Shown: piece after piece, positions 3,086 to 62,096 of the stretch
How positions within the stretch are numbered: the first letter of the stretch is position 1
Layout: each line of letters starts with the position of its first letter
Source: an uncultured Oscillospiraceae bacterium
GTDB lineage: Bacteria; Bacillota; Clostridia; Oscillospirales; Acutalibacteraceae
Direction: 5' to 3'
DNA: 64,000 nt
NCBI GenBank assembly: GCA_900552265.1
Contig: URZE01000003.1
Span: 23,336 to 87,335 of the forward strand
Made by a program: the position numbers and the translations under genes
Notes under the pieces: generated by a model
The model's input: the letters and a program-made list of their open reading frames with translations, nothing else
What the model was told of the DNA's origin: nothing
Databases searched by the model: none

Positions 3086-3820
3086 ATGAAAACATGTTTT
3101 AATGTGGTATCTGAAAAAATTAAAAAATTTCTTATTTTATTTAAAAAATTACTTTTCATAAGCAAAAAAGAAATTCATTACATAAACGGTCCCGAAACTC
3201 TTCCCCCACCTTTATCACGCAAAGAAGAAGCAGAAATAATGCAAAAAATATCCGAGGGAGCTCCCGAATCAGTCCGTGAACCGCTCATTACTCACAATCT
3301 TCGCCTTGTTGTTTATATAGCTAAAAAATTCGATTCTTCCGGAATTCCCATAGAAGATTTAATCTCCATCGGAACAATCGGGTTAATAAAAGCTGTAAAT
3401 ACTTTTTGTCCTTCCAAAAACATAAAATTGGCTACATACGCTTCAAGGTGCATAGAGAACGAAATACTTATGTACCTCAGAAAAACCGCTCAAATAAAAA
3501 ACGAAACCTCAATTGACGAACCTCTTAACGTAGATTGGGACGGAAATGAATTACTGCTTTCCGACATCCTCGGCAGTGACCAAAATATAGTTATGGCACG
3601 TTTAGAACAAGAAACCGAATGTTCACTGGTAAATGAAGCTGTTAAAAATCTCGCAGAACGAGATAAAATAATTATGGAACTCAGGTTTGGTCTTTCAGGT
3701 AAAAAAGAACACACTCAAAAAGAAGTCGCTGATTTAATGGGTATATCACAGTCTTATATTTCACGTTTAGAAAAAAGAATTATAGAAAAATTGAAAAAAG
3801 ATATAGAAAAAATATCTTAA
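3086..3820 (+). CDS. sigE: RNA polymerase sporulation sigma factor sigma-E (pro-sigma-E)
   Basis: 244 aa. N-terminal pro-sequence with [13 protein letters not shown]. Sigma-70 region 2 ([11 protein letters not shown]), region 3, and region 4 HTH ([21 protein letters not shown]). Placed directly downstream of spoIIGA. RBS AAGGAG. Confidence 0.85.
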
Positions 3821-13434: not shown

Positions 13435-15231
13435 GTGATATTTATAAAAATAAAATATTTAAAAAAATCATTAAAATATCTTTCTACATATCGAAATATG
13501 TTGTTTTTAATTTTATTCAATTTGATTATATCGCAGATATGCGGATTTTTTTTGCCCTGTATAATGGCTGATATTGTAGATATAGGTATAAAACAACATG
13601 GATTTGTTGATATGGGAATTGTACGGGCGACTATGTCGGAATCTGAAATAATAAGGTGTCAAACTTCATACATACTGTCAAAGGGAGCAATTATGACGGG
13701 AATCACGCTGATTGTAGTGATTCTTGACGCTTTTACGGGGTATATAATTTCAAAAATTTCAGCGGATATGTCATTAAAGCTCAGGAGAGATGTGTTTTTA
13801 AAAATATCTGATTTTTCATATCGAGATTACGATAAATTTTCCGTCTCTTCGCTTATAACAAGAGCTACTTCCGATGTGGAAAGTGTAAAGATCATGGTTT
13901 TATCTTCCACAAAAATGGTAATTCTGCCTTTTATGATAGGCGGCGGAATTTTTATGGCAATACAAAAAAGTGCTTCAATGAGCAGTATAATGGCATGGGG
14001 ATCTGTTGGAGCCGTCGTGTGTGTTACAGCGTGTTTTTTGTTGGTAACTCCCAAAGTGAAAATTTTTCAAAAATTATTTGACAATTTCAATCAAATAATA
14101 AAGGAACGATTAAGCGGAGTACAGTTAATACGTGTTTTCGGTAAAGAAGAGTTTGAGCGTAAGAAATTTAAAAAATCAAATGAGAAATTAACTTCAACTT
14201 CGCTATTTATAAATAAGATTACAATTATGATGGTTCCGATTCTTACTGCTATAATAAATTTTATGACAGTTTTTATTGTTTGGGTCGGAGCTGAAAATAT
14301 AAGTAAAAGCAGTATGAATGTCGGAGATGTAATGGCTTTTTTGCAATACGCAACAATGGTAATAACGGCATTTGTAATGCTTTCGATAACGATTTCTTCT
14401 ATGCCGAAATTTTGGGTATCAGCAGAAAGAATTTTTGAAGTGCTGGACACAGAAACAGTTACTAAAAATGAGGGAAAAAAATTTATTGAAAATATAAATT
14501 TAATTGAATTCAAAGACGTTGAATTCAGATATCCGGGAGCAGAAGAAAACGTTTTAAGTAATTTAAATTTTACTATAAAAGCTGGAGACCGAATAGCAAT
14601 AACGGGAACTACGGGTTCAGGTAAATCCACATTGATTAAACTTTTGCTCGGATTTTATGCACCGTCAAACGGAAGTATACTTGTGAATGGTACTGACTTG
14701 AAAGATATCGATAAAAAAAATTTTTTAGAAAAAATCTCATATGTTCCGCAGGCCGGAACGCTGTTTTCGGGAAAACTTTCTTCTAATTTGCGTATAGGAA
14801 ATGAAAATGCAACAAAAGATGAAATGAAGCGTTCGTTGGAAATTGCTCAGATATCTGATTTTGTAAATGAAAACGGATTTGATTTTGAAATAATGAAAAA
14901 CGGTAACAATATTTCGGGAGGACAACGACAAAGAATAGCAATAGCTCGAGCTATTCTGAGAAATGCCGATATGTATGTGTTTGACGATAGTTTTTCTCGA
15001 TTAGATTTCAAAACTGATTCAAATTTAAGGAAAGCTCTTAATACACAAATTAAAGACGCTGTAAAAGTGACGGTTTCTCAAAGAATAGGTACGATAAAAC
15101 AATCTGATATGATAATTGTTTTAGATGAAGGAAAAATTTCCGGAATCGGAACTCATGAAAAACTCATGCTCGAATGTGAAATTTATAAAAATATGGCGGA
15201 ACTTCAGCTGGGAAAGGAGGAAGCAAAGTAA
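13435..15231 (+). CDS. ABC exporter, fused permease/ATPase (heterodimer subunit 1)
   Basis: 598 aa. Six TM segments then an NBD (Walker A GTTGSGKST, signature ISGGQRQRIAIARA, Walker B MYVFDDSFS). Exact start uncertain; the ATG at 13498 is possible. Confidence 0.85.
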   Translation: MIFIKIKYLKKSLKYLSTYRNMLFLILFNLIISQICGFFLPCIMADIVDIGIKQHGFVDMGIVRATMSESEIIRCQTSYILSKGAIMTGITLIVVILDAFTGYIISKISADMSLKLRRDVFLKISDFSYRDYDKFSVSSLITRATSDVESVKIMVLSSTKMVILPFMIGGGIFMAIQKSASMSSIMAWGSVGAVVCVTACFLLVTPKVKIFQKLFDNFNQIIKERLSGVQLIRVFGKEEFERKKFKKSNEKLTSTSLFINKITIMMVPILTAIINFMTVFIVWVGAENISKSSMNVGDVMAFLQYATMVITAFVMLSITISSMPKFWVSAERIFEVLDTETVTKNEGKKFIENINLIEFKDVEFRYPGAEENVLSNLNFTIKAGDRIAITGTTGSGKSTLIKLLLGFYAPSNGSILVNGTDLKDIDKKNFLEKISYVPQAGTLFSGKLSSNLRIGNENATKDEMKRSLEIAQISDFVNENGFDFEIMKNGNNISGGQRQRIAIARAILRNADMYVFDDSFSRLDFKTDSNLRKALNTQIKDAVKVTVSQRIGTIKQSDMIIVLDEGKISGIGTHEKLMLECEIYKNMAELQLGKEEAK

Positions 15232-17024
15232 TGAAGTCAAATGAGCAAACAAAAGATAAATCGCAAAATTCGGAAATAAAGAGAACAAGGTATAATATAA
15301 AGAAAGTTTGGAATTATGTTTCCGAATATAAGATATATATTTTTGTTATATTTATTTTTGCAATCCTTGAATCTTTGTCGATTGTTTTTGGTCCCAAACT
15401 TACCGGTAGTGCGATTACATTGCTGTCTGAAGAAAATATTGACTTTGATTATCTTTTTAAAATAATAATTAAAATGTTGTTGCTTTTTTCTGTTTATGCA
15501 TTGTCGTCATGTCTTGGTAGTTATTTCGTGTCACTTGTGACGATAAAAGTAACATACAGACTTCGCAATGAAATATCTCTCAAAATGGACAAGCTTTCTC
15601 TTGAATACATTAACAGCGTTAGTTATGGTGATGTCCTTTCTTGTGTTATGAACGATGTAGAAAGTCTTAGTTCAGCGTTTACACAAAGCATAAGTCGTAT
15701 TGCTTCATCTGTTGTAATGGCAATCGGAGTACTTTTTATGATGATATCAATAAGCTTTAAAATGACTCTTGCTTTTATAGCTGTTTTACCTGTGATAGGG
15801 ATTGTAGCGGTGATCATCTTAAAAAAATCACAAAAATATTTTGTTGAATATCAAAAACAACTCGGAGAAATAAATGGATTTATAGAAGAAACTTTTTCAG
15901 GTCACGAAGTTATAAGTATTTTTAATGCAAAAGATAAAATTAAAAACAATTTTGATGAAATAAATCATAGAATGTACGATTCTTCTCAAAAATCACAATT
16001 TTTATCAGGAATTACTCCTTGTGTGGTGGAAATGATTTCTAAAGCAAGTTACATAGTTTCATGCGTAATGGGAGGATATCTTGCGGTTATGAAATTACTG
16101 AGTATAGGTGATATAACAGCTTTCATTGCGTATTCTAATCAGTTTATGGAACCGGTCATTCAGGTAACTTCCATTTCGGGAATTCTACAGCAAATAGTCG
16201 CTTCTTCACAGAGAATTTTTGAATTTCTTGAAGCACCCGAAGAACCACAAAATGATAAAGAAGATTTGGATGTAAATATTAATTCTCTACAAACATATGA
16301 GATAGAATTTAAAAATGTAAGTTTTGGATATACTTCCGAAAAGAAAATAATAAAAGATTTTTCACTTAAAGTTAAATTAGGTCAAACTCTTGCAATAGTA
16401 GGAGAAACGGGTTCCGGTAAAACCACTCTTATAAATATTTTAATGAGATTTTTGGAAAATTTTGAGGGAGAAATATTGTTAGGTGGAAAAAATATAAAAA
16501 GTTTTTCTCTCAAAGAATACCGTAAACTATTTGGATTGGTAACTCAAGATTCCTGGTTATACGGCGGTACAATATATGAAAATATAGCTTACGGAAAAGA
16601 AAATTCTTCCGAAAATGAAATAAAATTTGCAGCTGAACATGTAGGAGCAAGTCATTTTATAGAGTCTTTACCTGCAGGATACAATACTGTAATTGCAGAA
16701 AATATGTATAACATATCCGAAGGTCAAAAACAGCTTTTATGTATTGCAAGAATGATATTGAAAAACGCTCCGATTTTTATCATGGATGAAGCCACATCTT
16801 CCGTCGACGTTTTTACGGAAAGCCGTATACAGAATACTCTAAAAAAAATTCTAAAGGATAAGACTTCCATTGTAATAGCGCACAGACTTAGTACTATAAA
16901 AAATGCTGATCTTGTGGCCGTTATGGAAAAAGGTAAACTTATGGAAATAGGTACGCATGATGAGCTTATGCATAAAGAGGGAATATATTTCAACATGTAT
17001 ATGAGTCAATTTGATAGAGTATAA
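15231..17024 (+). CDS. ABC exporter, fused permease/ATPase (heterodimer subunit 2)
   Basis: 597 aa. TMD then NBD (GETGSGKTT, ISEGQKQLLCIARM, IFIMDEATSS). Start overlaps the upstream stop (TAATG). Confidence 0.85.
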   Translation: MKSNEQTKDKSQNSEIKRTRYNIKKVWNYVSEYKIYIFVIFIFAILESLSIVFGPKLTGSAITLLSEENIDFDYLFKIIIKMLLLFSVYALSSCLGSYFVSLVTIKVTYRLRNEISLKMDKLSLEYINSVSYGDVLSCVMNDVESLSSAFTQSISRIASSVVMAIGVLFMMISISFKMTLAFIAVLPVIGIVAVIILKKSQKYFVEYQKQLGEINGFIEETFSGHEVISIFNAKDKIKNNFDEINHRMYDSSQKSQFLSGITPCVVEMISKASYIVSCVMGGYLAVMKLLSIGDITAFIAYSNQFMEPVIQVTSISGILQQIVASSQRIFEFLEAPEEPQNDKEDLDVNINSLQTYEIEFKNVSFGYTSEKKIIKDFSLKVKLGQTLAIVGETGSGKTTLINILMRFLENFEGEILLGGKNIKSFSLKEYRKLFGLVTQDSWLYGGTIYENIAYGKENSSENEIKFAAEHVGASHFIESLPAGYNTVIAENMYNISEGQKQLLCIARMILKNAPIFIMDEATSSVDVFTESRIQNTLKKILKDKTSIVIAHRLSTIKNADLVAVMEKGKLMEIGTHDELMHKEGIYFNMYMSQFDRV

Positions 17025-17235: not shown

Positions 17236-17547
17236 CTATGAGATTTTTTCACCGGTAGAAAGTTTATTCAATAATGTTACACGAGTAATGTCTCTAATGA
17301 CATTTTCATAATTTTCTTGTGTAAAGTTTTTTCCACCGCCGATACTTTCTAATTCTTCCTCAGAAATTTCTCCATTTTTTTCTTCGAATAATTCGAATAT
17401 TTTTTTCAATTCATTTGCTTTTTCAAGAGATATCTCTATTCCGTTGTCGTTAAGATATTTTTTAATTTCCTCCCCACTTGCAAGTGACTGGAGATATGGA
17501 ACGGTATCGGGTTTATCTAAAAATTCTATTATTTGCTCTTTTTCCAT
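17236..17547 (-). CDS. Nif11-like leader / double-glycine precursor peptide (about 73-aa leader, 30-aa Cys-free core)
   Basis: 103 aa. N-terminal Nif11-type domain (MEKEQIIEFLDK...SGEEIKKYLNDNGIEISLEKANEL). ISEEELESIGGG matches LSxxELxxIxGG. Core KNFTQENYENVIRDITRVTLLNKLSTGEKIS. RBS AGGAAG. Confidence 0.6.
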   Translation of the reverse strand: MEKEQIIEFLDKPDTVPYLQSLASGEEIKKYLNDNGIEISLEKANELKKIFELFEEKNGEISEEELESIGGGKNFTQENYENVIRDITRVTLLNKLSTGEKIS

Positions 17548-22594: not shown

Positions 22595-23056
22595 ATGAAT
22601 AAAAAATTATTAGAAAAATTAAAACAAACAGGTCTTATGGAAAAAATAGTTGATTGTAGTAACAAAAAGGAAATCAAAAAGATTAACAATGAAGAAATAA
22701 ACAACCAAATTAACAAAATTCCTTTCACAATATCTAAGATAGATGAAGAAGATATGGAAAATATTTCAGGAGGAATTGGAGAAATTCGAGATACACTTGC
22801 TCACCTTATCGACAACATCGGATATGGAATTTATAGATTCAATAACACAAATGAAAAAGCAATAGAAGACTATAATTTTAAAGACAAAATTATTGATAAT
22901 TTTCAATTGTTCACGCTTAAACATTCTGAAGATATAGCAAATGTAACACTAGGAGCAGTAATTATAACAGGATGGGTTATGTTGGGACGTTTTGTATATA
23001 AAAAGCTGGGTAATAAAAAGGATTGGTGGAAAAATAACACAATTAGTAAAAATTAA
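22595..23056 (+). CDS. double-glycine leader precursor protein (Nif11-like 59-aa leader; 94-aa core with one TM helix and a basic tail)
   Basis: 153 aa. Leader ends IDEEDMENISGG. Core contains VTLGAVIITGWVMLGRFVYKKL. The core is paralogous to the next ORF's core. RBS AGGAG. Confidence 0.55.
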   Translation: MNKKLLEKLKQTGLMEKIVDCSNKKEIKKINNEEINNQINKIPFTISKIDEEDMENISGGIGEIRDTLAHLIDNIGYGIYRFNNTNEKAIEDYNFKDKIIDNFQLFTLKHSEDIANVTLGAVIITGWVMLGRFVYKKLGNKKDWWKNNTISKN

Positions 23057-23260: not shown

Positions 23261-23319
23261 TATAACTGTAACTTAATAAAATTAAAGATATTTTAAATTT
23301 AATTACAGTGGAGGTAAAA

Positions 23320-23691
23320 ATGAAAGAGATTAGAAAAAATTTGAACAATAATAAAATATCCAGAATAAGTGATGAAGATATGGAAAGTATTTTTGGTGGA
23401 AGTTCCACATTTGATAAGTTAAATACACTAAATAGGGATATGCGTGTTGCCCTGTTTAAACATGCCAACAGTAGAATTAGCGGGGTACCGGAATCAGACT
23501 ATGGTTATAAACATAAATTTTTACGTCAAGTTGGCATAAATTCTCAAGGTATAGTAGATACTGCCATGTTATCAACTCTAGTGATAGGGATAGTTTTCGC
23601 AGAACGATTATTCTGCAAACTTACTAATAAATTACTTACAAGAAATACTAATCATGTAAAAAATAATACTACTCCTAATCCAGTTGACTAA
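23320..23691 (+). CDS. double-glycine leader precursor protein (27-aa classic GG leader; 96-aa core with one TM helix)
   Basis: Likely ATG start at 23320 with GGAGG RBS (the ORF track starts at the GTG at 23308). Leader MKEIRKNLNNNKISRISDEDMESIFGG. Core has TM DTAMLSTLVIGIVFAERLFCKL. Confidence 0.55.
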   Translation: MKEIRKNLNNNKISRISDEDMESIFGGSSTFDKLNTLNRDMRVALFKHANSRISGVPESDYGYKHKFLRQVGINSQGIVDTAMLSTLVIGIVFAERLFCKLTNKLLTRNTNHVKNNTTPNPVD

Positions 23692-24271: not shown

Positions 24272-26434
24272 TTACTGAACTACTTGACGAACAGCTAATT
24301 CATAAAACTCACCTTTTTTATCCATAAGGTCATCATAAGTTCCTTCTTCTACTATTTTTCCTTTATCCATAACAAGGATTCTGTCACAATTTTTTATTGT
24401 AGAAAGTCTGTGAGCTATCACAATCCTTGTACTTTTAAGCTGAGATATACTGTTTACCACATGACTTTGAGTTATGTTATCAAGAGCAGATGTAGCTTCA
24501 TCCAAAAACAATATTGAAGGTCTATTTATAATCGCTCGAGCTATCATAAGTCTTTGTTTCTGTCCTCCGGAAAGTCCTCCCGAACCTTCGGAAATCAGCG
24601 TATGCATACCCATTGGCATTGCTTTTATATCATTATCTATTCCTGCCAAACGAGCTGCTTCCCATGCATCATCCATTGTTTTCCAGGGTGATGTTATTAT
24701 TATGTTGGAAAAAATGTCACTCGGGAACAACGAACCGTTTTGCATTACCACGCCTATTTTTTGACGAACACTTCTAAGATCAAGTCCGGAAAGATCATGG
24801 CCGTCATAATACACCGCTCCGGTGTCAGGATCCTCAAATCCGAGTAAAATTCTCATCAAAGTTGATTTTCCGCAACCTGTTTTTCCTACTATTGCAACAT
24901 ATTCTCCCTTTTTCACTTTAAGGTTTATGTTATCAAGAATTGTCGGACCGTCTTTATCATATTTAAAAGAAATATTATTAACTTCAATATTTCCGGAAAG
25001 AGATGTCGGAATTTTACGTCCGGCGCTGCTTTCGGGTTTTTGTTCCATAACAGGTTTAATCATCTTCAATATAGGACCGAGATTGGCAAATTTAAGAGCT
25101 ACCGCACTAAGTGACATTATTGCCCCCGTAACCGAACCGTAAGCGGTATTGAATCCCATATAATCCTCTAAGCTTACATGAGTTGTAACTGTACAATAAT
25201 ATAATACCATTTGTCCCACTGTAGATATTATCAGGCCTATAATACCGCTTATTTTTATGAGAAGTGGCGGAGAATAATCAAGTTTTTCTACCTCAGAATA
25301 ACTCTCAGCCCATTTTGCAAAGGCTCTTTTCTCGGAACCGGTAACTTTTATCTTCTGTATACCTCCGAAAAGAGCGTATGTCAGAGATTGTAATTTTGGA
25401 TCAAGGTCAAGTCTTTTTTTGTATATCTTTTGTCTGTAAAGAGTTATAAATACCTGATAAACAACTGTAACCACCACGATAATCATTCCCGGTACCACAA
25501 GTGATGGTCCGTATTGATACATCTGGAAGAAATATGCCAAAGAGAAAACAGCTGAAAGAGTAGCTGAAAATGATTCTCTGATTATCTGACAAAGAGTAGC
25601 TATATACCCCATTCGGCTTGCAAGTTCACCGGCAGTGTAACTTTTGAAAAACTTAGTCGGCAAAGTGAAAAAACGTATCATTATTGCACTGTTAACCGAA
25701 ATAGTCATCCTCGTGCTAAGGCGATTCGAAACTATACTGTTCGTAATCGACATAAGCGTTTCTCCTACAGTTTTTCCTATGAAGAATGCAGCCAACGGCC
25801 AAATAAGCGAAAGTGTACCTGAAGGAATTATGTTTTTATATATAATTTTCTGAATAATAGGACCCGTCATTCCAAGCAACTGAGCAACTGCATACGCTGA
25901 TAAAATAAATACGACATCTATAAAAGACAAGCTTTCTATCATAAATTTTATCAAATCACGTATTTTAAGGGACGTCAGAGGGAACGCACGATAAAAACAA
26001 AAAGCGTCTACATTTATATCCTTTGCAGTTTTGCTGTTTACTTTTATCTTATTTCCATCTGCATTTATATATTCGTATCCTCCCCACTTACGAGGGAAAA
26101 TCGCAACCACATTCCCATCTTTAGTTGAACCTAAAAGACATCCCATACTGTCTTTCCACCACTCACCGTTAAGCTCCACACGTCTTCTCATAGTGTTTGA
26201 CGGTTTGAGCATGTAATCAAGCTGAGCGTCTAAAGTAGCTACACTGTCAGGAACCGTTGGAATTTCTTTTCCGAGATATCTGAGTATCTGAGCAACAGCT
26301 CCCTTAGCTTGTTTATGCATTTTGGGTGTATCTATACCTACAATCGAAAGCAAATCCGAAAATGCTCCTTGAAACATCTCATCATCGCTTCTTCTTCTTC
26401 TTTGAACCTGACTTTCCAAAAAATTTGTTTCCAT
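24272..26434 (-). CDS. NHLM-type bacteriocin-system ABC transporter, ATP-binding/permease with degenerate N-terminal peptidase-like domain (ABC2)
   Basis: 720 aa. N-terminal ~170 aa resemble the C-terminal half of a C39 domain but lack the catalytic Cys/His. Then 6 TM and an NBD (GKTGCGKST, LSGGQKQRLMIARA, ILFLDEATSALD). Confidence 0.75.
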   Translation of the reverse strand: METNFLESQVQRRRRSDDEMFQGAFSDLLSIVGIDTPKMHKQAKGAVAQILRYLGKEIPTVPDSVATLDAQLDYMLKPSNTMRRRVELNGEWWKDSMGCLLGSTKDGNVVAIFPRKWGGYEYINADGNKIKVNSKTAKDINVDAFCFYRAFPLTSLKIRDLIKFMIESLSFIDVVFILSAYAVAQLLGMTGPIIQKIIYKNIIPSGTLSLIWPLAAFFIGKTVGETLMSITNSIVSNRLSTRMTISVNSAIMIRFFTLPTKFFKSYTAGELASRMGYIATLCQIIRESFSATLSAVFSLAYFFQMYQYGPSLVVPGMIIVVVTVVYQVFITLYRQKIYKKRLDLDPKLQSLTYALFGGIQKIKVTGSEKRAFAKWAESYSEVEKLDYSPPLLIKISGIIGLIISTVGQMVLYYCTVTTHVSLEDYMGFNTAYGSVTGAIMSLSAVALKFANLGPILKMIKPVMEQKPESSAGRKIPTSLSGNIEVNNISFKYDKDGPTILDNINLKVKKGEYVAIVGKTGCGKSTLMRILLGFEDPDTGAVYYDGHDLSGLDLRSVRQKIGVVMQNGSLFPSDIFSNIIITSPWKTMDDAWEAARLAGIDNDIKAMPMGMHTLISEGSGGLSGGQKQRLMIARAIINRPSILFLDEATSALDNITQSHVVNSISQLKSTRIVIAHRLSTIKNCDRILVMDKGKIVEEGTYDDLMDKKGEFYELAVRQVVQ

Positions 26435-26447
26435 GTCCGCTCACCTC

Positions 26448-28628
26448 CTATTCCGTTATTACGAGTTCTTTATATTTTCCGCCTTGAGCCATAAGTTCAT
26501 CGTGAGTACCACGCTCGGCAACCCTACCATGATCTAACACAATTATTTCATTACAGTCACGTATGGTTGAAAGCCTATGAGCAATGACTATACATGTGCA
26601 GCCTGATTTTCTTATATTGCTCATTACGATATTTTCGGTTTTAGCATCAAGCGCAGATGTTGCTTCGTCAAGAATGATAACCGTAGGTTCCTGAGCAAGA
26701 GCTCGAGCAATTTCAATACGCTGACACTGACCTCCTGAAAAATCTGTTCCGCCTTCGCTTATTACGTGGTCGTAACCATCAGGTCTCGAAATTATGGCGC
26801 TGTGTATGTCGGAATCTCTCGCAGCTAAAGTTACAGAGAAATCCTCTATAGACTCATCCCACATTCTTATGTTATTTTTAACGGTATCGTGAAACATTAT
26901 TTTGTCCTGGTCAACCATTACTACCGAACTGTGAAATTTATATGGATCTATTTGATCCTTTTTCATTCCATCGAAAGTTATTTCACCTTCCCATGGTTTG
27001 TAAAGACCCGTTATCAATTTTGCAACGGTTGATTTTCCGCTTCCGCTTCCTCCTACAACCGCAACCCACTGTCCCGGTTTAAGACTCATGTTAAAATCTT
27101 CAAGAATCGGTTTTGCAAGCCTTCCGTATCCAAATGTTATTCCTTTTACATTTACATAACCCTTTAATTTTGTGTCATCTTTGACACTTTCTTCACTTAC
27201 TTCCGGAACATCTACCGGATAATCCAAAACGTCTTCAACACGCTCCATTTCACAGCGCATTCCAATATAGTTTTGATATATGTCTATAATGCTTCCCACA
27301 GGGCTCAAAAACATCGACAAATATCCTTGAAATGCTCCCAGCATACCTACCGTGAAATGTCCCTGCATAATGATATAAATACCGCAGAGAACTAAAATAC
27401 ATCCAGAAATGCTATCGACAAATGACGGAATCGTTCCGATATACTGTGTAAACTTGGACATATTTGCAACAGCATTATTTTGCTTCGCAAAATATCCTGC
27501 CCATCTTTCAAAATATCCGCTTTCCGCTCCAGTGGATTTTATTGTTTCTATCATCTCAAATCCGGAATACGTTACACTCATGAGTTTTCCCTGATTAGGC
27601 ATTGAAGCTCTTTGAAAATCAAGCATCTTCTCTGACATATATCTTGCCAAAAACATATTTATGGCAGTTGCTCCGATTCCTATCAAAGTAAGAACCCAGC
27701 TATATTTAATCATAATGAAAAGGTAAAAGAAAAGAGAAACTATTCCACTGAACATAGGTGCTATTTTATGAATAAGAGTAAGCGCTATAGATGAGGTGGA
27801 ATCCTGACGTGAAACAACGTCTCCAACATTACGTTGAGAAAAGAAATCTAACGGTAACCGGAGAACATGCCACATGAATTCCGCACTGGAAGTAAGGGCA
27901 AATTTTCCTTCTATCTTAAGCCAGTAAATAGAATTTATAATACCTACCAAAACTTGTACAAGAAGTACAACTCCCATAATTCCTAAAAACGGCATCAGCC
28001 ATTCGGGATTTTTCCCTGTAAGTAGATTATCCGTAAATACACGTGTAAACATTGGTGAAGTGGTTGCAATAACGTCTCCCACTACGCTTATAATTACTGC
28101 CAATACAAACGGTACAAGCGCTCCTTTAAGACACCTCTTAGCAAATGAGAAAACACTCTTCGGCTTTCCCTCGGGTTTAAATTCTTCCGTTGGTTGCATA
28201 GTAAGTGCAATTCCCGTAAAAGCCTTATCAAATTCTTCCCCTGAAACCGTTACTTTTCCTCTTGCCGGATCGTTAATGTAATACTTATTCTTTTTTTCGT
28301 TTATACCGCACAGCACAACAAAGTGATTGAAATTCCAATGGATTATTACAGGTAAAGTCAAAGAACTCAAAGATGATGGCTCAAGTCTATACCCTCCCGA
28401 TTCAAATCCATAAGAACGTGCTGCAGCAAGCATATTCTTAGCTACACTACCGTCACGTGAAACTCCGCAATCTGCACGAACTTGAGTTAAAGGAATCCAT
28501 TTCTTGTAGTAAGCGGCTATCATACATACACACGCTGCTCCACATTCAAGAGCTTCCATCTGCATTACAATCGGCACTTTCAACCTTTTGCGTAACATCA
28601 GTACGCACCTCCTATCATTTATTTTCAA
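26448..28628 (-). CDS. peptidase-containing ABC transporter (C39 double-glycine peptidase + permease + ATPase), NHLM ABC1 / PCAT
   Basis: 726 aa. N-terminal C39 domain with intact catalytic triad context (QMEALECGAACVCMIAAYY; NHFVVLCGI; YINDP). TMD. NBD (GGSGSGKST, FSGGQCQRIEIARA, VIILDEATSALD). Overlaps the upstream HlyD-like gene by 14 nt. Confidence 0.85.
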   Translation of the reverse strand: MKINDRRCVLMLRKRLKVPIVMQMEALECGAACVCMIAAYYKKWIPLTQVRADCGVSRDGSVAKNMLAAARSYGFESGGYRLEPSSLSSLTLPVIIHWNFNHFVVLCGINEKKNKYYINDPARGKVTVSGEEFDKAFTGIALTMQPTEEFKPEGKPKSVFSFAKRCLKGALVPFVLAVIISVVGDVIATTSPMFTRVFTDNLLTGKNPEWLMPFLGIMGVVLLVQVLVGIINSIYWLKIEGKFALTSSAEFMWHVLRLPLDFFSQRNVGDVVSRQDSTSSIALTLIHKIAPMFSGIVSLFFYLFIMIKYSWVLTLIGIGATAINMFLARYMSEKMLDFQRASMPNQGKLMSVTYSGFEMIETIKSTGAESGYFERWAGYFAKQNNAVANMSKFTQYIGTIPSFVDSISGCILVLCGIYIIMQGHFTVGMLGAFQGYLSMFLSPVGSIIDIYQNYIGMRCEMERVEDVLDYPVDVPEVSEESVKDDTKLKGYVNVKGITFGYGRLAKPILEDFNMSLKPGQWVAVVGGSGSGKSTVAKLITGLYKPWEGEITFDGMKKDQIDPYKFHSSVVMVDQDKIMFHDTVKNNIRMWDESIEDFSVTLAARDSDIHSAIISRPDGYDHVISEGGTDFSGGQCQRIEIARALAQEPTVIILDEATSALDAKTENIVMSNIRKSGCTCIVIAHRLSTIRDCNEIIVLDHGRVAERGTHDELMAQGGKYKELVITE

Positions 28629-29202
28629 ATATCAACTCATAGAGCTTTGTTTCTCCTACAACTGCGGATACTTCACAATTGGTACCCTCAACAATTTCAA
28701 TTTCATTTCCTTTGTCGTTGGACCATTCTCCGAGAGCAATTTCAACCTCCATTACATTCCCATGTTGCATCGCAGAACTTACAAGAGGAACCACAACCTG
28801 AGGATTACCGAATTTTTCATTCAAATAATCACCGGTTACTATATCATCACTGATTCTAAGTATTGTTCCATTCATATAACCATATTCTGAACTTGGTGCG
28901 TCCTCAGGAGAAATCCTTGCAGACATTCCTTCTTTCAAACGTTTACTTGCCGAAATTGGAACATAACAATAAATTCTTTGTGAATTACTTACATCCTTAG
29001 CGATTACCCCTTGCATATCTACGGTTTTCGGAATTCCTCCTGAAAAAATCCATATCGCTCCTGCAGACAGAATAGTAAATATTCCGATAAGTATAGCTAT
29101 CAGGCTGGGATTGACTACTTTAATGTATTCGTTAAGCTGTTCCGGCGAAGAAACTCTCTCCAACGAACTTTTTCGAAATAAACTACTTTCATTTTCTGAC
29201 AT
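28615..29202 (-). CDS. short HlyD-family membrane fusion/secretion adaptor protein
   Basis: about 195 aa. N-terminus LERVSSPEQLNEYIKVVNPSLIAILIGIFTILSAGAIWIFSG is the HlyD-family signature region plus one TM. Short beta-rich periplasmic part with no long coiled coil. Probable ATG start at 29202 (RBS AAGGAAAGGTG). Confidence 0.6.
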   Translation of the reverse strand: MSENESSLFRKSSLERVSSPEQLNEYIKVVNPSLIAILIGIFTILSAGAIWIFSGGIPKTVDMQGVIAKDVSNSQRIYCYVPISASKRLKEGMSARISPEDAPSSEYGYMNGTILRISDDIVTGDYLNEKFGNPQVVVPLVSSAMQHGNVMEVEIALGEWSNDKGNEIEIVEGTNCEVSAVVGETKLYELIFENK

Positions 29203-29370
29203 ATTTCTCACCTTTCCTTAAATCTTTATTTTATTAAACACACTGTACTTTACTATTTAAAAATAATAATATAAAAATATTCTCAAGTCAATATATTTTT
29301 GGTGATTTATATATAAAACAACAACAAAATAACAGACCTTTCATATAAAAAATCTGTTATATATCATTTT

Positions 29371-56790: not shown

Positions 56791-57972
56791 TTAAGAAGTT
56801 ATGATTTTAAAGGATTCCTCACAACCACACGACTTTATTTCAGACGAGAACAAACTGTACAAGTCAGAAGCTCTACATTCAGTCTTAAAAACTTCTTTTG
56901 ACTTTTCAGATAACTTCTTTACTCCGGAATAATTACACACAATCGGTAAAGACGCCGTTTTTTTTGCTATTTTGAGTATTTCATGACCTTTCTCGTTCAC
57001 TCCTAAAACTCTAATATACGGAACTGAAGTATCTTGAATATCCTTGTTTATCCCTAAAAAATTACACATCAAAATCCTTTTTATCCTCGACATAGTATAT
57101 CTCTTGGTTTTAACAGAACAAAGAAAATCAGTCAGACAAATACTTTTTTTTGCTGCTTTTATAATTCTGTTTTCAAGACCTTCGCTTATGTCTGAAAGTT
57201 TAATAATATCATTTATCGACGTAGTTCTGAGATTATACATAATTGATTGATTCGCATATTCCAAACAATGAACTATGTTTCCTTTTGACAATTCTTTCGA
57301 TATGGCTTCACAGGAAGATTTCGGAATATATTTTTTAAATTCATTATCAGAAGCTTTTATCATTTGACGTATTTCGGAAGCAGAACGATATGTATGCAGA
57401 GTATCTCTACATAACCTTTTTACTGTAACTGGTTCAATATCAAGTCCTAATTTATTTATCCCTTTAATATACTCCACTCCGAGAATATTGTTTGGATCAC
57501 GAAGATATTCACTTAAATTTTTATTCTCCGAAACTGAATTTACAGCCATTTCTCTGGCTTTGGCAAACGTTACTCCCGTACTCAAGTTCTTTTTAAGAAA
57601 ATAAAAAAATTTATCAGATTCCAAAATTTTAGCTGTCTTACGCAAACAATTTATATCTCCGCACTCGCTACCGAATGCCAAAGCATCAACACATCCCAAC
57701 CCACCAGCTATTTCTACTCCGGACAAAGCATACTTTTCCGCTGAAGTTAACGTCCACACTACAGGCATTTCCAATACAGCATCTGCTCCGTTTAAAAGAG
57801 CTGCTTTTACTCTTAACCGTTTTGAAATTATCGCAGGTTCTCCACGCTGTACAAAGTTTCCGCTCATTATCACTACAATATGCGTAAATCCAAGTTTTCT
57901 TATCTCGTCCATGAGGTACTTGTGACCGTTATGAAAAGGATTAAACTCGGCTATTACTGCACATATTTTCAT
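56791..57972 (-). CDS. tmcAL: tRNA(Met) cytidine acetate ligase (TmcAL, UPF0348 nucleotidyltransferase family)
   Basis: MKICAVIAEFNPFHNGH (HxGH nucleotidyltransferase motif). Likely ATG at 57972 with GAGGAA RBS. Confidence 0.7.
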   Translation of the reverse strand: MKICAVIAEFNPFHNGHKYLMDEIRKLGFTHIVVIMSGNFVQRGEPAIISKRLRVKAALLNGADAVLEMPVVWTLTSAEKYALSGVEIAGGLGCVDALAFGSECGDINCLRKTAKILESDKFFYFLKKNLSTGVTFAKAREMAVNSVSENKNLSEYLRDPNNILGVEYIKGINKLGLDIEPVTVKRLCRDTLHTYRSASEIRQMIKASDNEFKKYIPKSSCEAISKELSKGNIVHCLEYANQSIMYNLRTTSINDIIKLSDISEGLENRIIKAAKKSICLTDFLCSVKTKRYTMSRIKRILMCNFLGINKDIQDTSVPYIRVLGVNEKGHEILKIAKKTASLPIVCNYSGVKKLSEKSKEVFKTECRASDLYSLFSSEIKSCGCEESFKIITS

Positions 57973-58363
57973 ATTTTCCTCATTTACAAATAGCAAATTA
58001 TTGAACCTATAAGTCCGCTGATCATCAAAAAAGAACCTACAATAGCTAAAATTTTAATAATTCTTTTTCTTCGATACCCATGAGTTTTTTTATAATTTTT
58101 AAATTCTTTTTTTATTACATTATTGTTTTTCACAAATATTTCTCCTTTGGTTTTGATAATATAACCATTATAGTACGAATTTTTTTCATTGGCAAACGAA
58201 TATAGCTAATTTTCGTACCAAAAAATTCTTTGAATTGTACATACGAAAAAATATTTTAATAAAAATCAAAAATATACAGTTCTAAAACCGTTATTAAACA
58301 AATATCTATATTTCGGACGGGCTTTTAACCCCATTATCTTCATTTGGAAAGGAAAACCGTACT

Positions 58364-58657
58364 ATGGATGAAATTACAGAACTTGAGTATACAACCGATA
58401 CAAATACCGTAAAAAAATCCAAAACTATAAATTTACTTGCAGTAAGATTTGTCGTATGCATTACAGTACTACTGGGAATTACTTTTATCAGACTCAATAA
58501 CATATATTACTTTGACAGTTTTAAATATCTATATCTCGAAAAATTTTGCGAAGAAAAGTATGATTCCCAAGAAATAAAATTACGAATCAAAAAAATTTTA
58601 TCAAAAGCTAAAAACAAAGCAGATCAATTTCTAAAAAATTCTCATTCTAATCCATAA
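58364..58657 (+). CDS. hypothetical small bitopic membrane protein
   Basis: 97 aa. One TM (LLAVRFVVCITVLLGITFI) then a charged helical tail. 3' end overlaps the convergent PBP gene by 11 nt. Confidence 0.35.
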   Translation: MDEITELEYTTDTNTVKKSKTINLLAVRFVVCITVLLGITFIRLNNIYYFDSFKYLYLEKFCEEKYDSQEIKLRIKKILSKAKNKADQFLKNSHSNP

Positions 58658-60263
58658 AAAGTTCAGGAATTTCAGAAATCATTCTATCTGTAATTTCTTT
58701 AAAAACCGGACCACAGCTTTCTCCACCACCGGATCCTGCTTCAGACAAAACAACTATTGAATATTTTGGGTTTTCATACGGAAAAAATCCCGCAAACCAG
58801 GACTGTTCTATTTTTTTACCATCTTCTATTATTCCTGTCTGAGCAGTTGATGTTTTTGCAGCTGCTTCTGTTTTTTCCGGCTTTCCTTTTTCACTGGTAC
58901 CGTAATCTATAGATGCTTTCATATGAGATTTGAGCTTTTTTGCGGTTACTTCCGATATGATTCTCTCTTTTTTGGATTCAATGATATTTTTTTTGATTAT
59001 TTTCATATTTTCATCTGTAAGACCTTTAACAAGTTTCGGATTACTGTACACTCCACCTGATGCAATAGTATTTATTATACCCGTTATCTGAAGCGGAGTC
59101 GCCATAAGTTTACCCTGTCCAAACGAAAAGTTGGCAAGTGTTTTTATATTTTTTAAACTCTCTTCACACGGTAAAATTCCCGCATTTGAATTCATTGACG
59201 GTGCAAGCGAAACGGATTCACCGAGTTTAAATTTCTTAGCCATACACAGCAAAGCATCAAATGGCATTTTTTTAATAAGTTCTATAAAATATCCATTGCA
59301 CGAATGTGCCAAAGCTTGTTCCATATTTACAATTCCATGCTTTTTTCCATTAAAGCATTTAAAAGAGGCATCTTCGACTTTATTAACTCCTTCGCACTCA
59401 TAAATCGTATCTTCGCTTATTCCTCTTTCAAGCGCTGTCGCAGAAGTCACAAGCTTAAATATTGAACCTAAATTAAAAGAACACATTACCCGATTTAAAA
59501 GCGGAGAATTTTTATCATTAAGATACGGTGCTACATTACCCGGTAAAAATCCCGGAAAACTCGAACAAGCCCTTATTTCACATCTCGGTACTTCGCTTAC
59601 TATAACAGCTCCTCTCGAAATGTATTTATTCGCAGCTTCTTCAGCAATGGCTTGAATTCGGCTGTCAATGTTAAGCACTACACCTTTCGACACAAGATAT
59701 GATTTGTCTTCAATAAATTCTTCTTTACCAGGTAAAATTTTCCCCGATGCATCCACACTGTAATTTACACGTATATCATGATTATTCCCGAAAAGATAGT
59801 CGTCATATACTTTCTCTATACCGGATACACCCTTCTTATCTCCCGATATATATCCTATTATATGAGATGCAAGAGTAACTCCGCTGTATCTTACCGGTAC
59901 TTCAAATACTCTTACATAAGGCGAATTTACTTTCTTACTGACTTCTATAGTAAACGGAGTATTTTTTGAACATTTCTTGTATAACTCTTCTTTCTTATCA
60001 TCTGAAACAACAGGAGTAAGTACTGAAAGCGATTCCGTACACGGTACTGCCGCAGCTATAAGTTTCTTTTTTGTATTAACAAGAGGAATATTTCTACAAT
60101 CATATATGGTCCCTCTTATGTCCGCTATTTTTAAATTATACGTCTGCTGATTCAAAGCTGCGTCATAAAGAGTTTCTTTATCAGAAAGATAATCCAAACA
60201 AAAAAACGCCATACAAAACATAAACATAAACAATCCATATAGTATCAGACATCTTTTATACAT
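58647..60263 (-). CDS. class B penicillin-binding protein (transpeptidase; SpoVD/PBP2-like)
   Basis: N-terminal TM anchor, dimerisation domain, transpeptidase motifs SIFK (SxxK), SCN (SxN) and a KTST variant of KTG(T/S). Likely ATG at 60263 with GAGAGG RBS. Confidence 0.75.
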   Translation of the reverse strand: MYKRCLILYGLFMFMFCMAFFCLDYLSDKETLYDAALNQQTYNLKIADIRGTIYDCRNIPLVNTKKKLIAAAVPCTESLSVLTPVVSDDKKEELYKKCSKNTPFTIEVSKKVNSPYVRVFEVPVRYSGVTLASHIIGYISGDKKGVSGIEKVYDDYLFGNNHDIRVNYSVDASGKILPGKEEFIEDKSYLVSKGVVLNIDSRIQAIAEEAANKYISRGAVIVSEVPRCEIRACSSFPGFLPGNVAPYLNDKNSPLLNRVMCSFNLGSIFKLVTSATALERGISEDTIYECEGVNKVEDASFKCFNGKKHGIVNMEQALAHSCNGYFIELIKKMPFDALLCMAKKFKLGESVSLAPSMNSNAGILPCEESLKNIKTLANFSFGQGKLMATPLQITGIINTIASGGVYSNPKLVKGLTDENMKIIKKNIIESKKERIISEVTAKKLKSHMKASIDYGTSEKGKPEKTEAAAKTSTAQTGIIEDGKKIEQSWFAGFFPYENPKYSIVVLSEAGSGGGESCGPVFKEITDRMISEIPELFMD

Positions 60264-60330
60264 ACAAAAAACCAACCTCTCTTAGGTAAATGCTTACCTA
60301 ATTAAGTATTGGCTTTTTTTTATCAACTAT

Positions 60331-60888
60331 TTAAAATTTAAGAATCCATCTTAAAACCCCACATGGTTCAGCACTATTAACCTTACCAGTGACTGCATTA
60401 GCTGCCATGGTCACTCCTTCTACAGCACCTGTAGTTGCATGAAGCGTACCCGTAGCTGCACTGGTTAATCCTTTCACAGCACCCGTAGTTGCATGAAGCG
60501 TATCCCTAGCTTCACTGGTTAATCCTTCCACGGCACCTGTGGTTGCACGAAGCGTATCCTTAGCTGCATCAATAGCTTCTCCACTTTTTTTAGCAAAATA
60601 TACGATACTTCCGGCTACAGCAATATAAAGGGCACATTTTGCTGCATCTTTTATTCTCCCAGAGACAGATCTACCATTTCCACCATTGATATTTTCCAAA
60701 TCACATTCCTTTATAGAACTTTTCATTCCAAGACGGACTAAATTAGTTATTTCTTTAATATCCTCGTCGGACAAATCCACTCCCTTACTCTTAAATAAAA
60801 TTTTAAACTCTTCAGGTGAATTCGCATTTAAAACTTCTTTCATAAAACTTTCATTTTTTAAAATATCATTTAATTTTTCACTGTTCAC
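60331..60888 (-). CDS. Nif11-like leader / double-glycine precursor protein with TM helix and three 18-aa repeats
   Basis: 185 aa. Nif11-type N-terminal domain (EKLNDILKNESFMKEVLNANSPEEFKILFKSKGVDLSDEDIKEI), leader end CDLENINGG, then a hydrophobic helix CALYIAVAGSIVYFA, then TL(R/H)ATTGAV(E/K)GLTS... ×3. GTG start with GGAGG RBS. 55 bp upstream of the PBP and 59 bp downstream of mltG. Confidence 0.55.
   Translation of the reverse strand: MNSEKLNDILKNESFMKEVLNANSPEEFKILFKSKGVDLSDEDIKEITNLVRLGMKSSIKECDLENINGGNGRSVSGRIKDAAKCALYIAVAGSIVYFAKKSGEAIDAAKDTLRATTGAVEGLTSEARDTLHATTGAVKGLTSAATGTLHATTGAVEGVTMAANAVTGKVNSAEPCGVLRWILKF
60405..60566. repeat. 54-bp tandem repeat ×3 (coding) inside the Nif11-repeat gene
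   Basis: gcacctgtagttgcatgaagcgtacccgtagctgcactggttaatcctttcaca-like units are visible in the DNA. Confidence 0.7.
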
Positions 60889-60947
60889 AATTCAATCCTC
60901 CAATTTTTTAATATATTTTCGAATATTATTATAATATTTTATCAAAA

Positions 60948-62096
60948 TTATTTCAACCCTGCTTTTTTCAAGTTTGCAATGTGAGAATCATTTGTTTTAG
61001 CGTAAAAAGCTTCTCCGCTCGCACTGTGACAGTAGTAATAATACTGAGTATCAGCCGGATTCAAGGCAGCAAGAATCGCATCGATACCGGGATTACATAT
61101 GGGTCCGGGAGGTAAACCCTCGATCTTATAGGTATCATAGTCACTTTGGAAGGTTTTTGCAATATTTTTCGGAATTGCCGACTTTGTTTTATAAGGATAG
61201 TACACTGTAGAATCGATTCGGAGAACGCTTATCGAAAATTCTCCAAATGGATTTTGTCCTTTATTTTGAAGCGTTTTGAGTCGATTATGGATTACCGATG
61301 AAACAAGATACATATCGTCTCTGTTCGCAGCTTCCGCCTGAATAAGTGAAGCTATATTCATAAGTTTATCCAACGTCATTGACTTTGATTGAGCTAATTC
61401 TTTTATACTTACTTTTTCTTTATAGTCTTCCAAATTGGTTTTTTTGATTACTTTTTTATTATAGTTGTTCAATATTTTTACAATTACGTCTGAAGCGTTT
61501 TCACCCTGATAAAATTTATAGGTATCGGGAAAAAGATAACCTTCAAGTTTATAAACTCGTTTTTTGGAATTGTCAACGTCTTTCAGGAACGTATACTTTT
61601 CATCAAATTTATTTGATTTACAAAGTTTAAGAAAATCATCCTTTTTACACACTTTACTACTCTCAAGAATTTGTGCATAATCCAAGATATTCATTCCCTC
61701 GGTGAAAGTTATTTCCGAAACCTCATTAATATTTGTCTGATTTTTAAGACGATTTATTATAGCTTGATAGTCCATACTTGTATCGAGTTCGTAAATTCCA
61801 CCTGAAAATGCTCCCGAAAACTTTGTTACACGAGCATAAATTTTAAAAAATTCTTTTTCTGAAATAATCCCGTTTTCTTTCAGACTCTCGGCTATTTCCT
61901 CCAGTGAAGCTTCATCCGGAATTTCTACCATTGCAACGCTTGAAGGTTTTCCGACAGCTAACATGTCATTTATTCCGACAAGAATATATCTTGAAAGCAA
62001 AACGGAAATTAAAACAAGAAATACAATCCATGACATTCTGAAAAAAAGACCATTTTTCTGATATCTATCTGTGTTTTCTTTTTTTACTGATTTCAT
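60948..62096 (-). CDS. mltG: endolytic murein transglycosylase MltG (YceG family)
   Basis: 382 aa. N-terminal TM. YceG-like domain with conserved …LVSSVIHNRL… motif. Confidence 0.85.
   Translation of the reverse strand: MKSVKKENTDRYQKNGLFFRMSWIVFLVLISVLLSRYILVGINDMLAVGKPSSVAMVEIPDEASLEEIAESLKENGIISEKEFFKIYARVTKFSGAFSGGIYELDTSMDYQAIINRLKNQTNINEVSEITFTEGMNILDYAQILESSKVCKKDDFLKLCKSNKFDEKYTFLKDVDNSKKRVYKLEGYLFPDTYKFYQGENASDVIVKILNNYNKKVIKKTNLEDYKEKVSIKELAQSKSMTLDKLMNIASLIQAEAANRDDMYLVSSVIHNRLKTLQNKGQNPFGEFSISVLRIDSTVYYPYKTKSAIPKNIAKTFQSDYDTYKIEGLPPGPICNPGIDAILAALNPADTQYYYYCHSASGEAFYAKTNDSHIANLKKAGLK

Follow-up and report, generated by a model that had tools for sequence, protein, structure and literature searches.

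What is a gene with a Nif11-type double-glycine leader doing between mltG and the gene for a class B penicillin-binding protein (PBP)? The question is raised by a 64,000-nucleotide stretch of DNA from an uncultured Oscillospiraceae bacterium (contig URZE01000003.1), here called the window, in which a short open reading frame (ORF) that we call X occupies this position. An earlier note on the window had likened the place of X to that of FtsL, a small bitopic protein. The reading that we favour, and hold tentatively, is that X is the precursor of an accessory protein that would be cleaved and exported by a peptidase-containing ATP-binding cassette (ABC) exporter and would then insert into a membrane. 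The gene and its immediate flanks comprise the following features:

60331..60888, minus strand: ORF of the X precursor, 185 amino acids (aa), with a GTG start and its stop codon at 60331..60333
60896..60901, minus strand: ribosome-binding site (RBS) of X, GGAGGA, 7 nt 5' of the start, taken from the sequence
60948..62096, minus strand: MltG/YceG endolytic transglycosylase (Pfam 3e-72; TIGR00247 146 bits, cutoff 103.4)
58647..60263, minus strand: class B PBP of the PBP3/SpoVD type, without PASTA domains (7RD0 5.8e-54; Transpeptidase 1.7e-41)

The gap between mltG and X is 59 bp. The gap between X and the PBP gene is 55 bp with a TTG start for the PBP (which would then span 58647..60275) and 67 bp if the PBP begins at the ATG at 60263 (MYKRC...). 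The ATG seems the likelier start because the TTG abuts the GAGAGG RBS. The exact X sequence is found in public assemblies, on contigs of up to 501 kb. X is evidently a real gene, because homologues in many assemblies keep a strongly conserved N-terminal domain, and this conservation of the leader rules out a chance ORF or a pseudogene. The ORF, the Gly-Gly, the hydrophobic helix, the three 18-aa repeats and the flanking genes with their gaps were all described in the earlier note and are confirmed from the sequence, Tandem Repeats Finder and Pfam.

The first 70 residues of X are, judged by sequence comparison, a genuine Nif11-type double-glycine leader, with these features:

60679..60888, minus strand: Nif11-type double-glycine leader, aa 1-70 (TIGR03798 match to aa 11-70)
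60679..60714, minus strand: cleavage-site motif IKECDLENINGG, aa 59-70, which fits the family consensus; the predicted cut is after G70

The motif CDLENINGG occupies aa 62-70, and the Gly-Gly corresponds to residues 69-70. X scores 17.8 bits against TIGR03798 (E 0.0029), below the cutoff of 32.3, in a match that covers profile positions 15-68 of 68 and ends at the Gly-Gly. The four closest homologues of X, scanned against the same model, reach 17.7-20 bits, and their matched stretch likewise runs to the Gly-Gly. Despite its own score below the cutoff we accept X as a member, because intermediate sequences link it to TIGR03798. A profile built from X and five homologues, searched against 1.84 billion proteins at E <= 1e-3, retrieved 517 representative proteins, most of which share only profile positions 1-75. 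TIGR03798 is matched by 92 of 146 wider relatives (E <= 1e-3, best 1e-9) and by 15 of 31 members of the subfamily to which X belongs (E <= 0.01), and 14 of the 146 wider relatives bear class IIb bacteriocin cores.

The end of the leader is well conserved. Among 149 listed relatives with a detectable leader it reads L/I(-12) S E E D L(-7) E N V/I(-4) S/A G G, with G(-2) found in all 149, G(-1) in 146 and L(-7) in 139. The corresponding tail of X, I(-12) K E C D(-8) L(-7) E N I(-4) N G G, has the consensus hydrophobic residues at -4, -7 and -12 and the acidic residue at -8. In Nif11-derived precursors the Gly-Gly lies on average at position 70, and the genes are often far from those for export (PMC2887384). 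An AlphaFold model based on a 33-sequence alignment is confident for the leader alone: aa 1-50 form four helices at a pLDDT (predicted local distance difference test) of 81-92, and aa 61-73 around the Gly-Gly are disordered. With a 6-sequence alignment the mean pLDDT was 41.8 and the model was unusable. The Nif11-like double-glycine leader that the earlier note had proposed is thus borne out by the TIGR03798 match, the 517-protein profile family and the conserved Gly-Gly.

A leader of this type calls for a C39-peptidase ABC exporter, and a matching one is encoded in the window, 32 kb from X, as a three-gene NHLM export system:

26448..28628, minus strand: NHLM ABC subunit with a C39 peptidase domain (TIGR03796 873.6 bits, cutoff 853.3; Peptidase_C39 8e-36)
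24272..26434, minus strand: second NHLM ABC subunit, without a peptidase domain (TIGR03797 724.5 bits, cutoff 709.4)
28615..29211, minus strand: short HlyD-like NHLM secretion protein, 198 aa (TIGR03794 95.7 bits, below the cutoff of 156.2)

Both ABC subunits score above their cutoffs, and the C39 domain retains the catalytic Cys (ECGAAC), His (NHFVVL) and Asp (NDP). The match of the short HlyD-like protein covers only the C-terminal third of the TIGR03794 profile. We presume that the product of 26448..28628 is the processing and export enzyme for X.

Beyond the Gly-Gly, X consists of a 115-aa core with a net charge of +4 and two Cys residues, in which three elements can be recognized:

60592..60636, minus strand: hydrophobic helix CALYIAVAGSIVYFA, aa 85-99, following a basic tail NGRSVSGRIKDAAK, taken from the sequence
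60394..60555, minus strand: three tandem 18-aa repeats, aa 112-165, within a helical spacer (54-bp DNA repeat, Tandem Repeats Finder)
60334..60360, minus strand: C-terminal amphipathic Trp/Phe motif GVLRWILKF, aa 177-185, conserved across the subfamily

The core appears to define an unnamed family with a conserved layout. Approximately 33 sequences share the region of X after the Gly-Gly, and in this subfamily a basic tail, often (K)IKN, is followed by a transmembrane (TM) helix, a helical spacer and a basic amphipathic C-terminal Trp/Phe motif. The TM motif is (K)IKNIAxAIxAxxxAGSxxY, and the hydrophobic helix lies no further than 4-14 residues from the Gly-Gly. The lysine-flanked hydrophobic stretch of X, at just 15 residues, is short for a TM helix; in relatives it has 19-25. 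The spacer is hydrophilic, alpha-helical and diverse in length (~25-95 aa), and the cores range from 54 to 132 aa, nearly all of them net cationic. No Pfam or NCBIfam model reaches its cutoff on the core module, and no source in a 5.8-billion-protein collection names it.

Tandem repeats arose independently in the spacers of three family members: 18 aa repeated three times in the window, a 7-aa unit GHADQIV in P0030, and SVNSAAS in three copies in P0172 against one copy in P0047. The repeat in X is far above chance (period 54, 3.1 copies, 85% matches, score 242, at 60399..60568). Variation in copy number among strains, a check suggested in the earlier note, is seen as three against two units: two 167-aa alleles in the 90% cluster of X lack exactly one 18-aa unit, in different backgrounds, although collapse during assembly is possible.

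Weak similarities of the core point in two directions. DUF948 (PF06103) matches X at 21.6 bits (E 2.5e-4), below the gathering score of 37.2, in an alignment that spans the TM helix and the spacer, and five of the 31 members give such matches at E <= 0.01 (best 2e-6), all below the Pfam cutoff. Bacteriocin_IIc scores 13.9 bits on X against a cutoff of 27.1, with weak matches in four of the 31. A profile of the core only retrieved X-family members and no DUF948 proteins, in a search whose sensitivity is limited by a word prefilter. Foldseek comparison of the X model with the Protein Data Bank returned nothing at E < 1, and a sequence search of solved structures with X gave nothing meaningful. 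The C-terminal motif, which in relatives reads GWLAKQFLGG, SWLMKLFGG or GLLGRLFLGG, looks like the membrane-targeting sequence of E. coli MinD, KGFLKRLFGG (PMC5471200). We treat this as a resemblance only, because hydrophobic moments failed to set the motif apart from the spacer, which is equally amphipathic.

The contrast between a conserved leader and a variable core is also seen within a species. Locus L009 and the window encode MltG and PBP proteins that are 100% identical, and the flanking DNA is ~99% identical, but the X proteins are only 41% identical. At the DNA level identity is near-complete through codon 22, falls off over the remainder of the leader, disappears beyond the Gly-Gly and is restored at the stop codon. 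Between the two proteins, 65% of residues are identical in aa 23-70 of the leader, 28% in the following 32 aa and 19% in what remains. The allele of the window looks like the B-type paralogue of the sister species (P0002, P0004) and that of L009 like the A type (P0005, P0006), so that sorting or recombination of two old paralogue types would be the simplest account. We do not favour diversifying selection as the source of the 41%-identical allele since paralogue sorting fits better, but the two are not mutually exclusive. The flanks of the window and L009 are identical, and no adjacent gene co-varies with the X allele.

The position of X next to the PBP gene is not peculiar to the window. Synteny comparison places X-family genes directly upstream of orthologous PBP genes in approximately nine lineages and two gene orders, with PBP identities to the window of 47-100%. 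In the first (order A: window, L001-L005, L009, L010, L013, L015, L016 and L022) an MTHFS gene and mltG precede one to three copies of X and the PBP gene, and the PBP is 50-100% identical to that of the window. In the second (order B: L018-L021, L030 and L032) a divergent SpoIIID gene is followed by a truncated X remnant, X, the PBP gene, thyX, tmk, a DJ-1 gene, MTHFS and mltG, which lies 4.5 kb away. One family member, P0030 in L017, has no PBP gene downstream. Other lineages hold one to three tandem copies, truncated remnants and leaderless paralogues. The truncated member of order B (L019 6744..6956, with counterparts in L030 and L032) is 70 aa long and lies just upstream of the intact X; it has a partial leader, the Gly-Gly and the start of the TM helix before a stop codon, and is kept in three assemblies.

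The leaderless paralogue is 74-79 aa long, is conserved in L013 and L022, and begins right at the TM motif. It bears on the idea that the leader of X is never cleaved and is instead the permanent cytoplasmic domain of a bitopic protein with its N terminus inside and its C terminus outside, the Gly-Gly being a relic or a hinge. We consider this quite improbable. The charges flanking the helix mildly favour such a topology, as the ~9.5-residue segment between the Gly-Gly and the TM helix is basic (+2.7/-0.8) and the 15 residues after the helix carry +3.0/-2.1. The folded four-helix N-terminal domain and disordered linker of the AlphaFold model would also suit it, and a protein of this orientation could insert without an ABC exporter. 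However, the Gly-Gly and positions -4, -7 and -12 are kept as strictly as in bona fide exported relatives, and in hundreds of proteins a leader of this family precedes a short bacteriocin-like core. The cognate C39 exporter is there and intact, and from the leaderless paralogues it is clear that the domain is not needed for the core to work.

Whether the PBP needs X can be judged from loci that lack it. Scanning metagenome contigs with an alignment of the PBP identified seven loci without X, where the same PBP gene comes directly after mltG with a gap of 78-350 bp. The PBP of these loci is 86% identical to that of the window in L023, 83% in L031, 73% in L024, 67% in L025, L026 and L028, and 65% in L027, and no match to the leader hidden Markov model (HMM) occurs anywhere in the seven. 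In a neighbour-joining tree of the PBP the loci without X interleave with those that bear it, L023 being sister to the window clade and L024 nesting with L013 and L022. This implies approximately four independent losses of X, or repeated gains at one site, on the evidence of the tree. X is therefore dispensable for the PBP, and its slot optional.

In L023, from the nearest lineage without X, a fragment of the mltG 3' end is duplicated in the mltG-PBP gap (3163..3500; 59% identity over 74 aa), and L031 (223..346) has the same unique sequence as L023 downstream of that fragment. This gap may be the scar of a cassette loss or rearrangement.

The loci without X also bear on the suggestion that X stands in for FtsL or DivIC as the small bitopic protein that partners a divisome PBP. 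The resemblance is one of gross layout only: the gene just upstream of that for a class B PBP encodes a small one-helix protein with a helical tail. Pfam gave no match of X to FtsL or DivIC even at E <= 1; the scan returned only DUF948 and Bacteriocin_IIc. The best solved relative of the PBP is C. difficile PBP3 (7RD0, 5.8e-54, aa 42-526), followed by SpoVD (7RCZ). The window PBP aligns with the zinc tetrad Cys-Cys-His-SCN that has been described for both (PMC9334274), and C. difficile PBP3 is a non-essential, Spo0A-dependent protein of the polar septum that is induced in sporulation and likewise lacks PASTA domains (PMC12713402). The PBP is thus of the PBP3/SpoVD type and not the FtsI of a dcw cluster. 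Upstream lie MTHFS and mltG rather than mraZ-rsmH, and a mraZ-rsmH-ftsL cluster did not turn up among the ORFs of the window that were scanned. Moreover, FtsL belongs to the conserved core genes, unlike the hypervariable X, and the same PBP occurs seven times without X. The FtsL-like slot of the earlier note is not supported by this comparison: X is not an FtsL stand-in, the label is wrong, and we regard the replacement of FtsL or DivIC as extremely improbable. The third active-site motif of the PBP (residues ~470-472) is KTS, compared with KTG in C. difficile PBP3, and is invariant in six aligned orthologues.

The intergenic regions on either side of X each contain a candidate control element:

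60928..60956, minus strand: sigma-70-like promoter match TTGAAA-17-TATAAT (11/12) in the mltG-X gap, a pattern match
60266..60318, minus strand: A-tract, ~50-nt hairpin and U6 element (fold energy -21.8 kcal/mol, z -4.6)

The -35 hexamer of the promoter match overlaps the mltG stop codon, and the two strands of the 64-kb window together have only 11 promoter-like sites of such quality. The element is also present in L005, L009 and L010, and other lineages carry different promoter-like motifs at this place. In order B, a TTGACT-17-TATAAT element upstream of X in L019 is the only visible promoter of the PBP gene.

The hairpin ends 2 nt before the ATG of the PBP gene, and the RBS of the PBP (GAGAGG) lies in its 3' arm. 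A terminator scan with stem and loop limits missed this structure; folding found it. The architecture recurs in every lineage examined (L005, L013, L015, L016, L018, L019 and L022-L028), and the outer stem varies on both sides with the pairs kept (GCCAA/UUGGU, GCCAACA/UGUUGG, AGACC/GGUCU and GCGGGC/GCCUGC). Rfam gave no match across 60100..61100, and no equivalent hairpin is found between tandem X paralogues. Because loci without X have the hairpin too, it appears to be tied to the PBP, as a leader element, or to be the terminator of whichever gene lies upstream. It is likely a terminator, an attenuator or a translational control element for the PBP, and given its position it probably occludes the RBS and controls expression of the PBP3-type PBP. 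The X cassettes lie between the mltG stop codon and this hairpin, and the mltG-PBP site can be viewed as a putative long-lived insertion point just upstream of the PBP leader hairpin. These patterns suggest that X is expressed largely by itself, with the PBP reliant on read-through. Of the findings that the earlier note had named as telling against its proposal, we thus see a promoter-like site, a terminator-like hairpin and paralogues without a leader, but not a match to FtsL or DivIC.

The persistence of X beside the PBP gene suggests another explanation, namely that X is a cis-acting envelope factor whose mature bitopic form scaffolds or modulates the downstream PBP3-type PBP, or MltG. X would then have a role like that of YrrS/RagB towards PBP4b and RodA in B. 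subtilis, or of FacZ in S. aureus. The two genes stay adjacent in both gene orders, including the one in which mltG is 4.5 kb away, and in order B the PBP gene has apparently no promoter besides the one upstream of X. The TM and C-terminal motifs are conserved with the length of the spacer left free, and a leaderless paralogue is shared by two species (L013 and L022); together the motifs and the paralogue suggest action in the producer's own membrane. The weak DUF948 matches recall FacZ, which belongs to DUF948 and combines a TM helix with a coiled coil (PMC10914604), and yrrS-pbpI provides a conserved bicistronic operon of comparable arrangement (PMC6335420). In addition, no immunity-like gene co-varying with X was found in single-copy loci; the leaderless 74-79-aa paralogues could be immunity proteins in L013 and L022. 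In its boldest version the exporter would be an insertion device for the TM helix after the Gly-Gly.

Against such a role stand the seven loci with an orthologous PBP (65-86% identical) and no X, which amount to at least approximately four independent losses, and the exchange of 41%-identical alleles between conspecific strains with an unchanged PBP. A single rearrangement that keeps two neighbours together is weak evidence of coupling, and the link to DUF948 rests on scores below the Pfam cutoff and was not recovered by the core-only profile. We know of no membrane protein acting in its own producer that bears a Nif11 leader. We therefore rate a cis-acting envelope factor as possible but rather doubtful. 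The more specific proposition, that the NHLM exporter does not serve toxins or signals alone but also processes and inserts small membrane-anchored proteins that act in the producer's envelope with the PBP3-type PBP or MltG, we find unlikely. If it were true, the repeat-built spacer would be a length-adjustable rod, and double-glycine export would be tied to sporulation peptidoglycan synthesis.

We rank first the reading of X as an exported accessory protein because its leader, its exporter and its evolutionary behaviour match those of Nif11 and double-glycine cargo: a conserved leader ahead of a variable core, gene copies in tandem, remnants, swapped alleles and recurrent loss. The observations just given on adjacency, the order B promoter, the conserved motifs and leaderless paralogue, the DUF948 matches and the missing immunity gene weigh against export, as do three others. 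The score of X against TIGR03798 is below the cutoff, the 115-aa core is much larger than typical Nif11 cores or class II bacteriocins, and no modification enzyme is found among the neighbours of X.

As an exported protein, X would be transcribed from its own sigma-70-like promoter in the mltG-X gap, where the pattern match lies, and translated as the 185 aa read from the sequence. By analogy with the family, the 70-aa helical leader would dock on the C39 domain of the 26448..28628 product, working with those of 24272..26434 and 28615..29211, and would be cut after G70. The cationic core would then be exported. More speculatively, it might meet the membrane through its N-proximal hydrophobic helix and its C-terminal Trp/Phe tail, with the helical spacer between them. 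This spacer would consist of two or three 18-aa units depending on the strain, each unit corresponding to five helical turns. The target could be the membrane of a competitor, following the logic of class II bacteriocins, or the outer leaflet of the producer's own membrane, where the product would be a surface factor.

An HMM of the leader, built from the relatives and run on the ORFs of the window, identified three further proteins with a Gly-Gly leader:

17236..17547, minus strand: Gly-Gly-leader ORF, 103 aa (leader HMM E 2.8e-16)
22595..23056, plus strand: Gly-Gly-leader ORF, 153 aa, adjoining the exporter (leader HMM E 2.9e-5; DEEDMENISGG)
23308..23691, plus strand: Gly-Gly-leader ORF, 127 aa, adjoining the exporter (leader HMM E 1.2e-3; SDEDMESIFGG)

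In each of the two that adjoin the exporter, the middle part is hydrophilic and the C-terminal part comprises a hydrophobic helix and a basic tail. Both are probably local cargo of the exporter, and in this layout they look more like tail-anchored proteins than small peptides. The ORF at 17236..17547 has a 31-aa hydrophilic core after GGG and lies just downstream of an ABC transporter gene pair (13435..17024, plus strand). A scan of species-representative genomes with the X alignment identified one relative, L012, that shares the leader only. It is a 106-aa Nif11-like-leader gene (7986..8306) directly 3' of a 1443-aa PolC-like ORF in a metagenome-assembled genome of an uncultured member of the Eubacteriales, and thus another lone leader gene wedged among housekeeping genes. 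The window also has an ORF of 1435 aa, similar in size to this PolC-like protein. Many other relatives that share the leader, including P0020, P0038, P0081, P0084, P0085, P0099, P0107, P0109, P0111, P0115, P0129 and P0140, have a short core with one hydrophobic helix and a conserved C terminus that ends in ...RRW. By their sequences these look like a distinct, apparently widespread subfamily.

The wider neighbourhood of X consists of genes for a GNAT acetyltransferase, MTHFS and MltG on the upstream side and for the PBP and a HIGH-motif nucleotidyltransferase (Pfam HIGH_NTase1) on the downstream side. The nucleotidyltransferase gene is intact in the window (56791..57996, 401 aa) and split in L001 (8917..10097) and L002 (8151..9331), into 279+100 aa and 203+190 aa, as a result of frameshifts or of errors in assembly. 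Convergent to the PBP gene, and overlapping its 3' end by 11 bp, is an ORF of 97 aa with a single hydrophobic helix (58364..58657, plus strand). It occurs in most related loci that are long enough, at 27-98% identity where detected, but was not detected in L018, L023, L028 or L030; it has no Pfam match and does not co-vary with the X allele. The window is chromosomal DNA of a spore-former, as it encodes SpoIIGA, SpoIIE, FtsZ, SecA and a V-type ATPase.

Nif11-type leaders and their ABC exporters are known for delivering short modified peptides and bacteriocins, and the prochlorosin precursors are the best-studied of the Nif11-derived precursors. These precursors (N11P, TIGR03798) and the three-gene NHLM export system (TIGR03794, TIGR03796 and TIGR03797) were described by Haft et al. 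2010 (PMC2887384). X resembles them in its helical leader of ~70 aa that ends in Gly-Gly with the same -4/-7/-12 pattern, in the conservation of this leader ahead of a hypervariable region, and in the occurrence of several paralogues per genome far from an exporter whose cognate C39 ABC, second ABC and HlyD-like genes are in the window. Unlike N11P, whose cores average ~26 aa (PMC2887384), X has a core of 115 aa (54-132 aa in the subfamily) that is not rich in Cys, Ser or Gly, has no modification enzyme nearby and contains a TM helix, a helical spacer and an amphipathic tail. Its gene is also at a fixed site beside a PBP gene, and its score is below the TIGR03798 cutoff.

X shares with class II bacteriocins a Gly-Gly leader matched with a C39 ABC exporter and a cationic, hydrophobic core, and with their loci the tandem paralogues, remnants, presence or absence and allele swapping at a conserved position. 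However, the leader of X is three times longer and the mature part is larger, with a long hydrophilic helical rod. There is no immunity gene adjacent to X, and Bacteriocin_IIc is matched only below its cutoff.

For the position of the gene, YrrS/RagB and PBP4b of B. subtilis (yrrS-yrrR/pbpI), in which a small bitopic protein is encoded upstream of a PBP in a conserved bicistronic operon (PMC6335420, PMC12457691), would be a nearer precedent than FtsL. As with YrrS, the gene immediately downstream of X encodes a non-essential class B PBP of the sporulation type, and in both proteins the TM helix comes after a short basic segment and before a region of poor conservation. In the gene naming of B. 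subtilis yrrL is mltG and yrrR is pbpI, and this operon, too, is near mltG. Unlike YrrS, which has no leader, X is optional among close relatives, and the two lack homology (no DUF1510 match in the Pfam scan); the GpsB-binding motif SRxxR(R/K) is not evident in X or its N-tail NGRSVSGRIKDAAK. FacZ of S. aureus is a DUF948 division-site factor with a TM helix and a coiled coil (PMC10914604). X likewise has a TM helix, then a helix resembling a coiled coil and a C-terminal region of positive charge. However, DUF948 scores are below the Pfam cutoff throughout the family and its core profile retrieves no DUF948 proteins, and FacZ has its TM helix at the very N terminus, no leader and a cytoplasmic tail.

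The analysis thus removes a tempting FtsL-like annotation and brings out a conserved hairpin over the RBS of the PBP. If the product of X is antagonistic, it would represent a new kind of bacteriocin from uncultured gut Clostridia; should it function in the cell that makes it, it would be the first protein with a Nif11 leader to have a housekeeping role in the envelope. In this family a leader-plus-cargo cassette has stayed at one place in the chromosome across long evolutionary distances and has undergone duplication, truncation, swapping between strains and loss. What is new in comparison with the known systems is a Nif11 leader on a module of 54-132 aa with a TM helix, a helical rod of variable length and an amphipathic tail.

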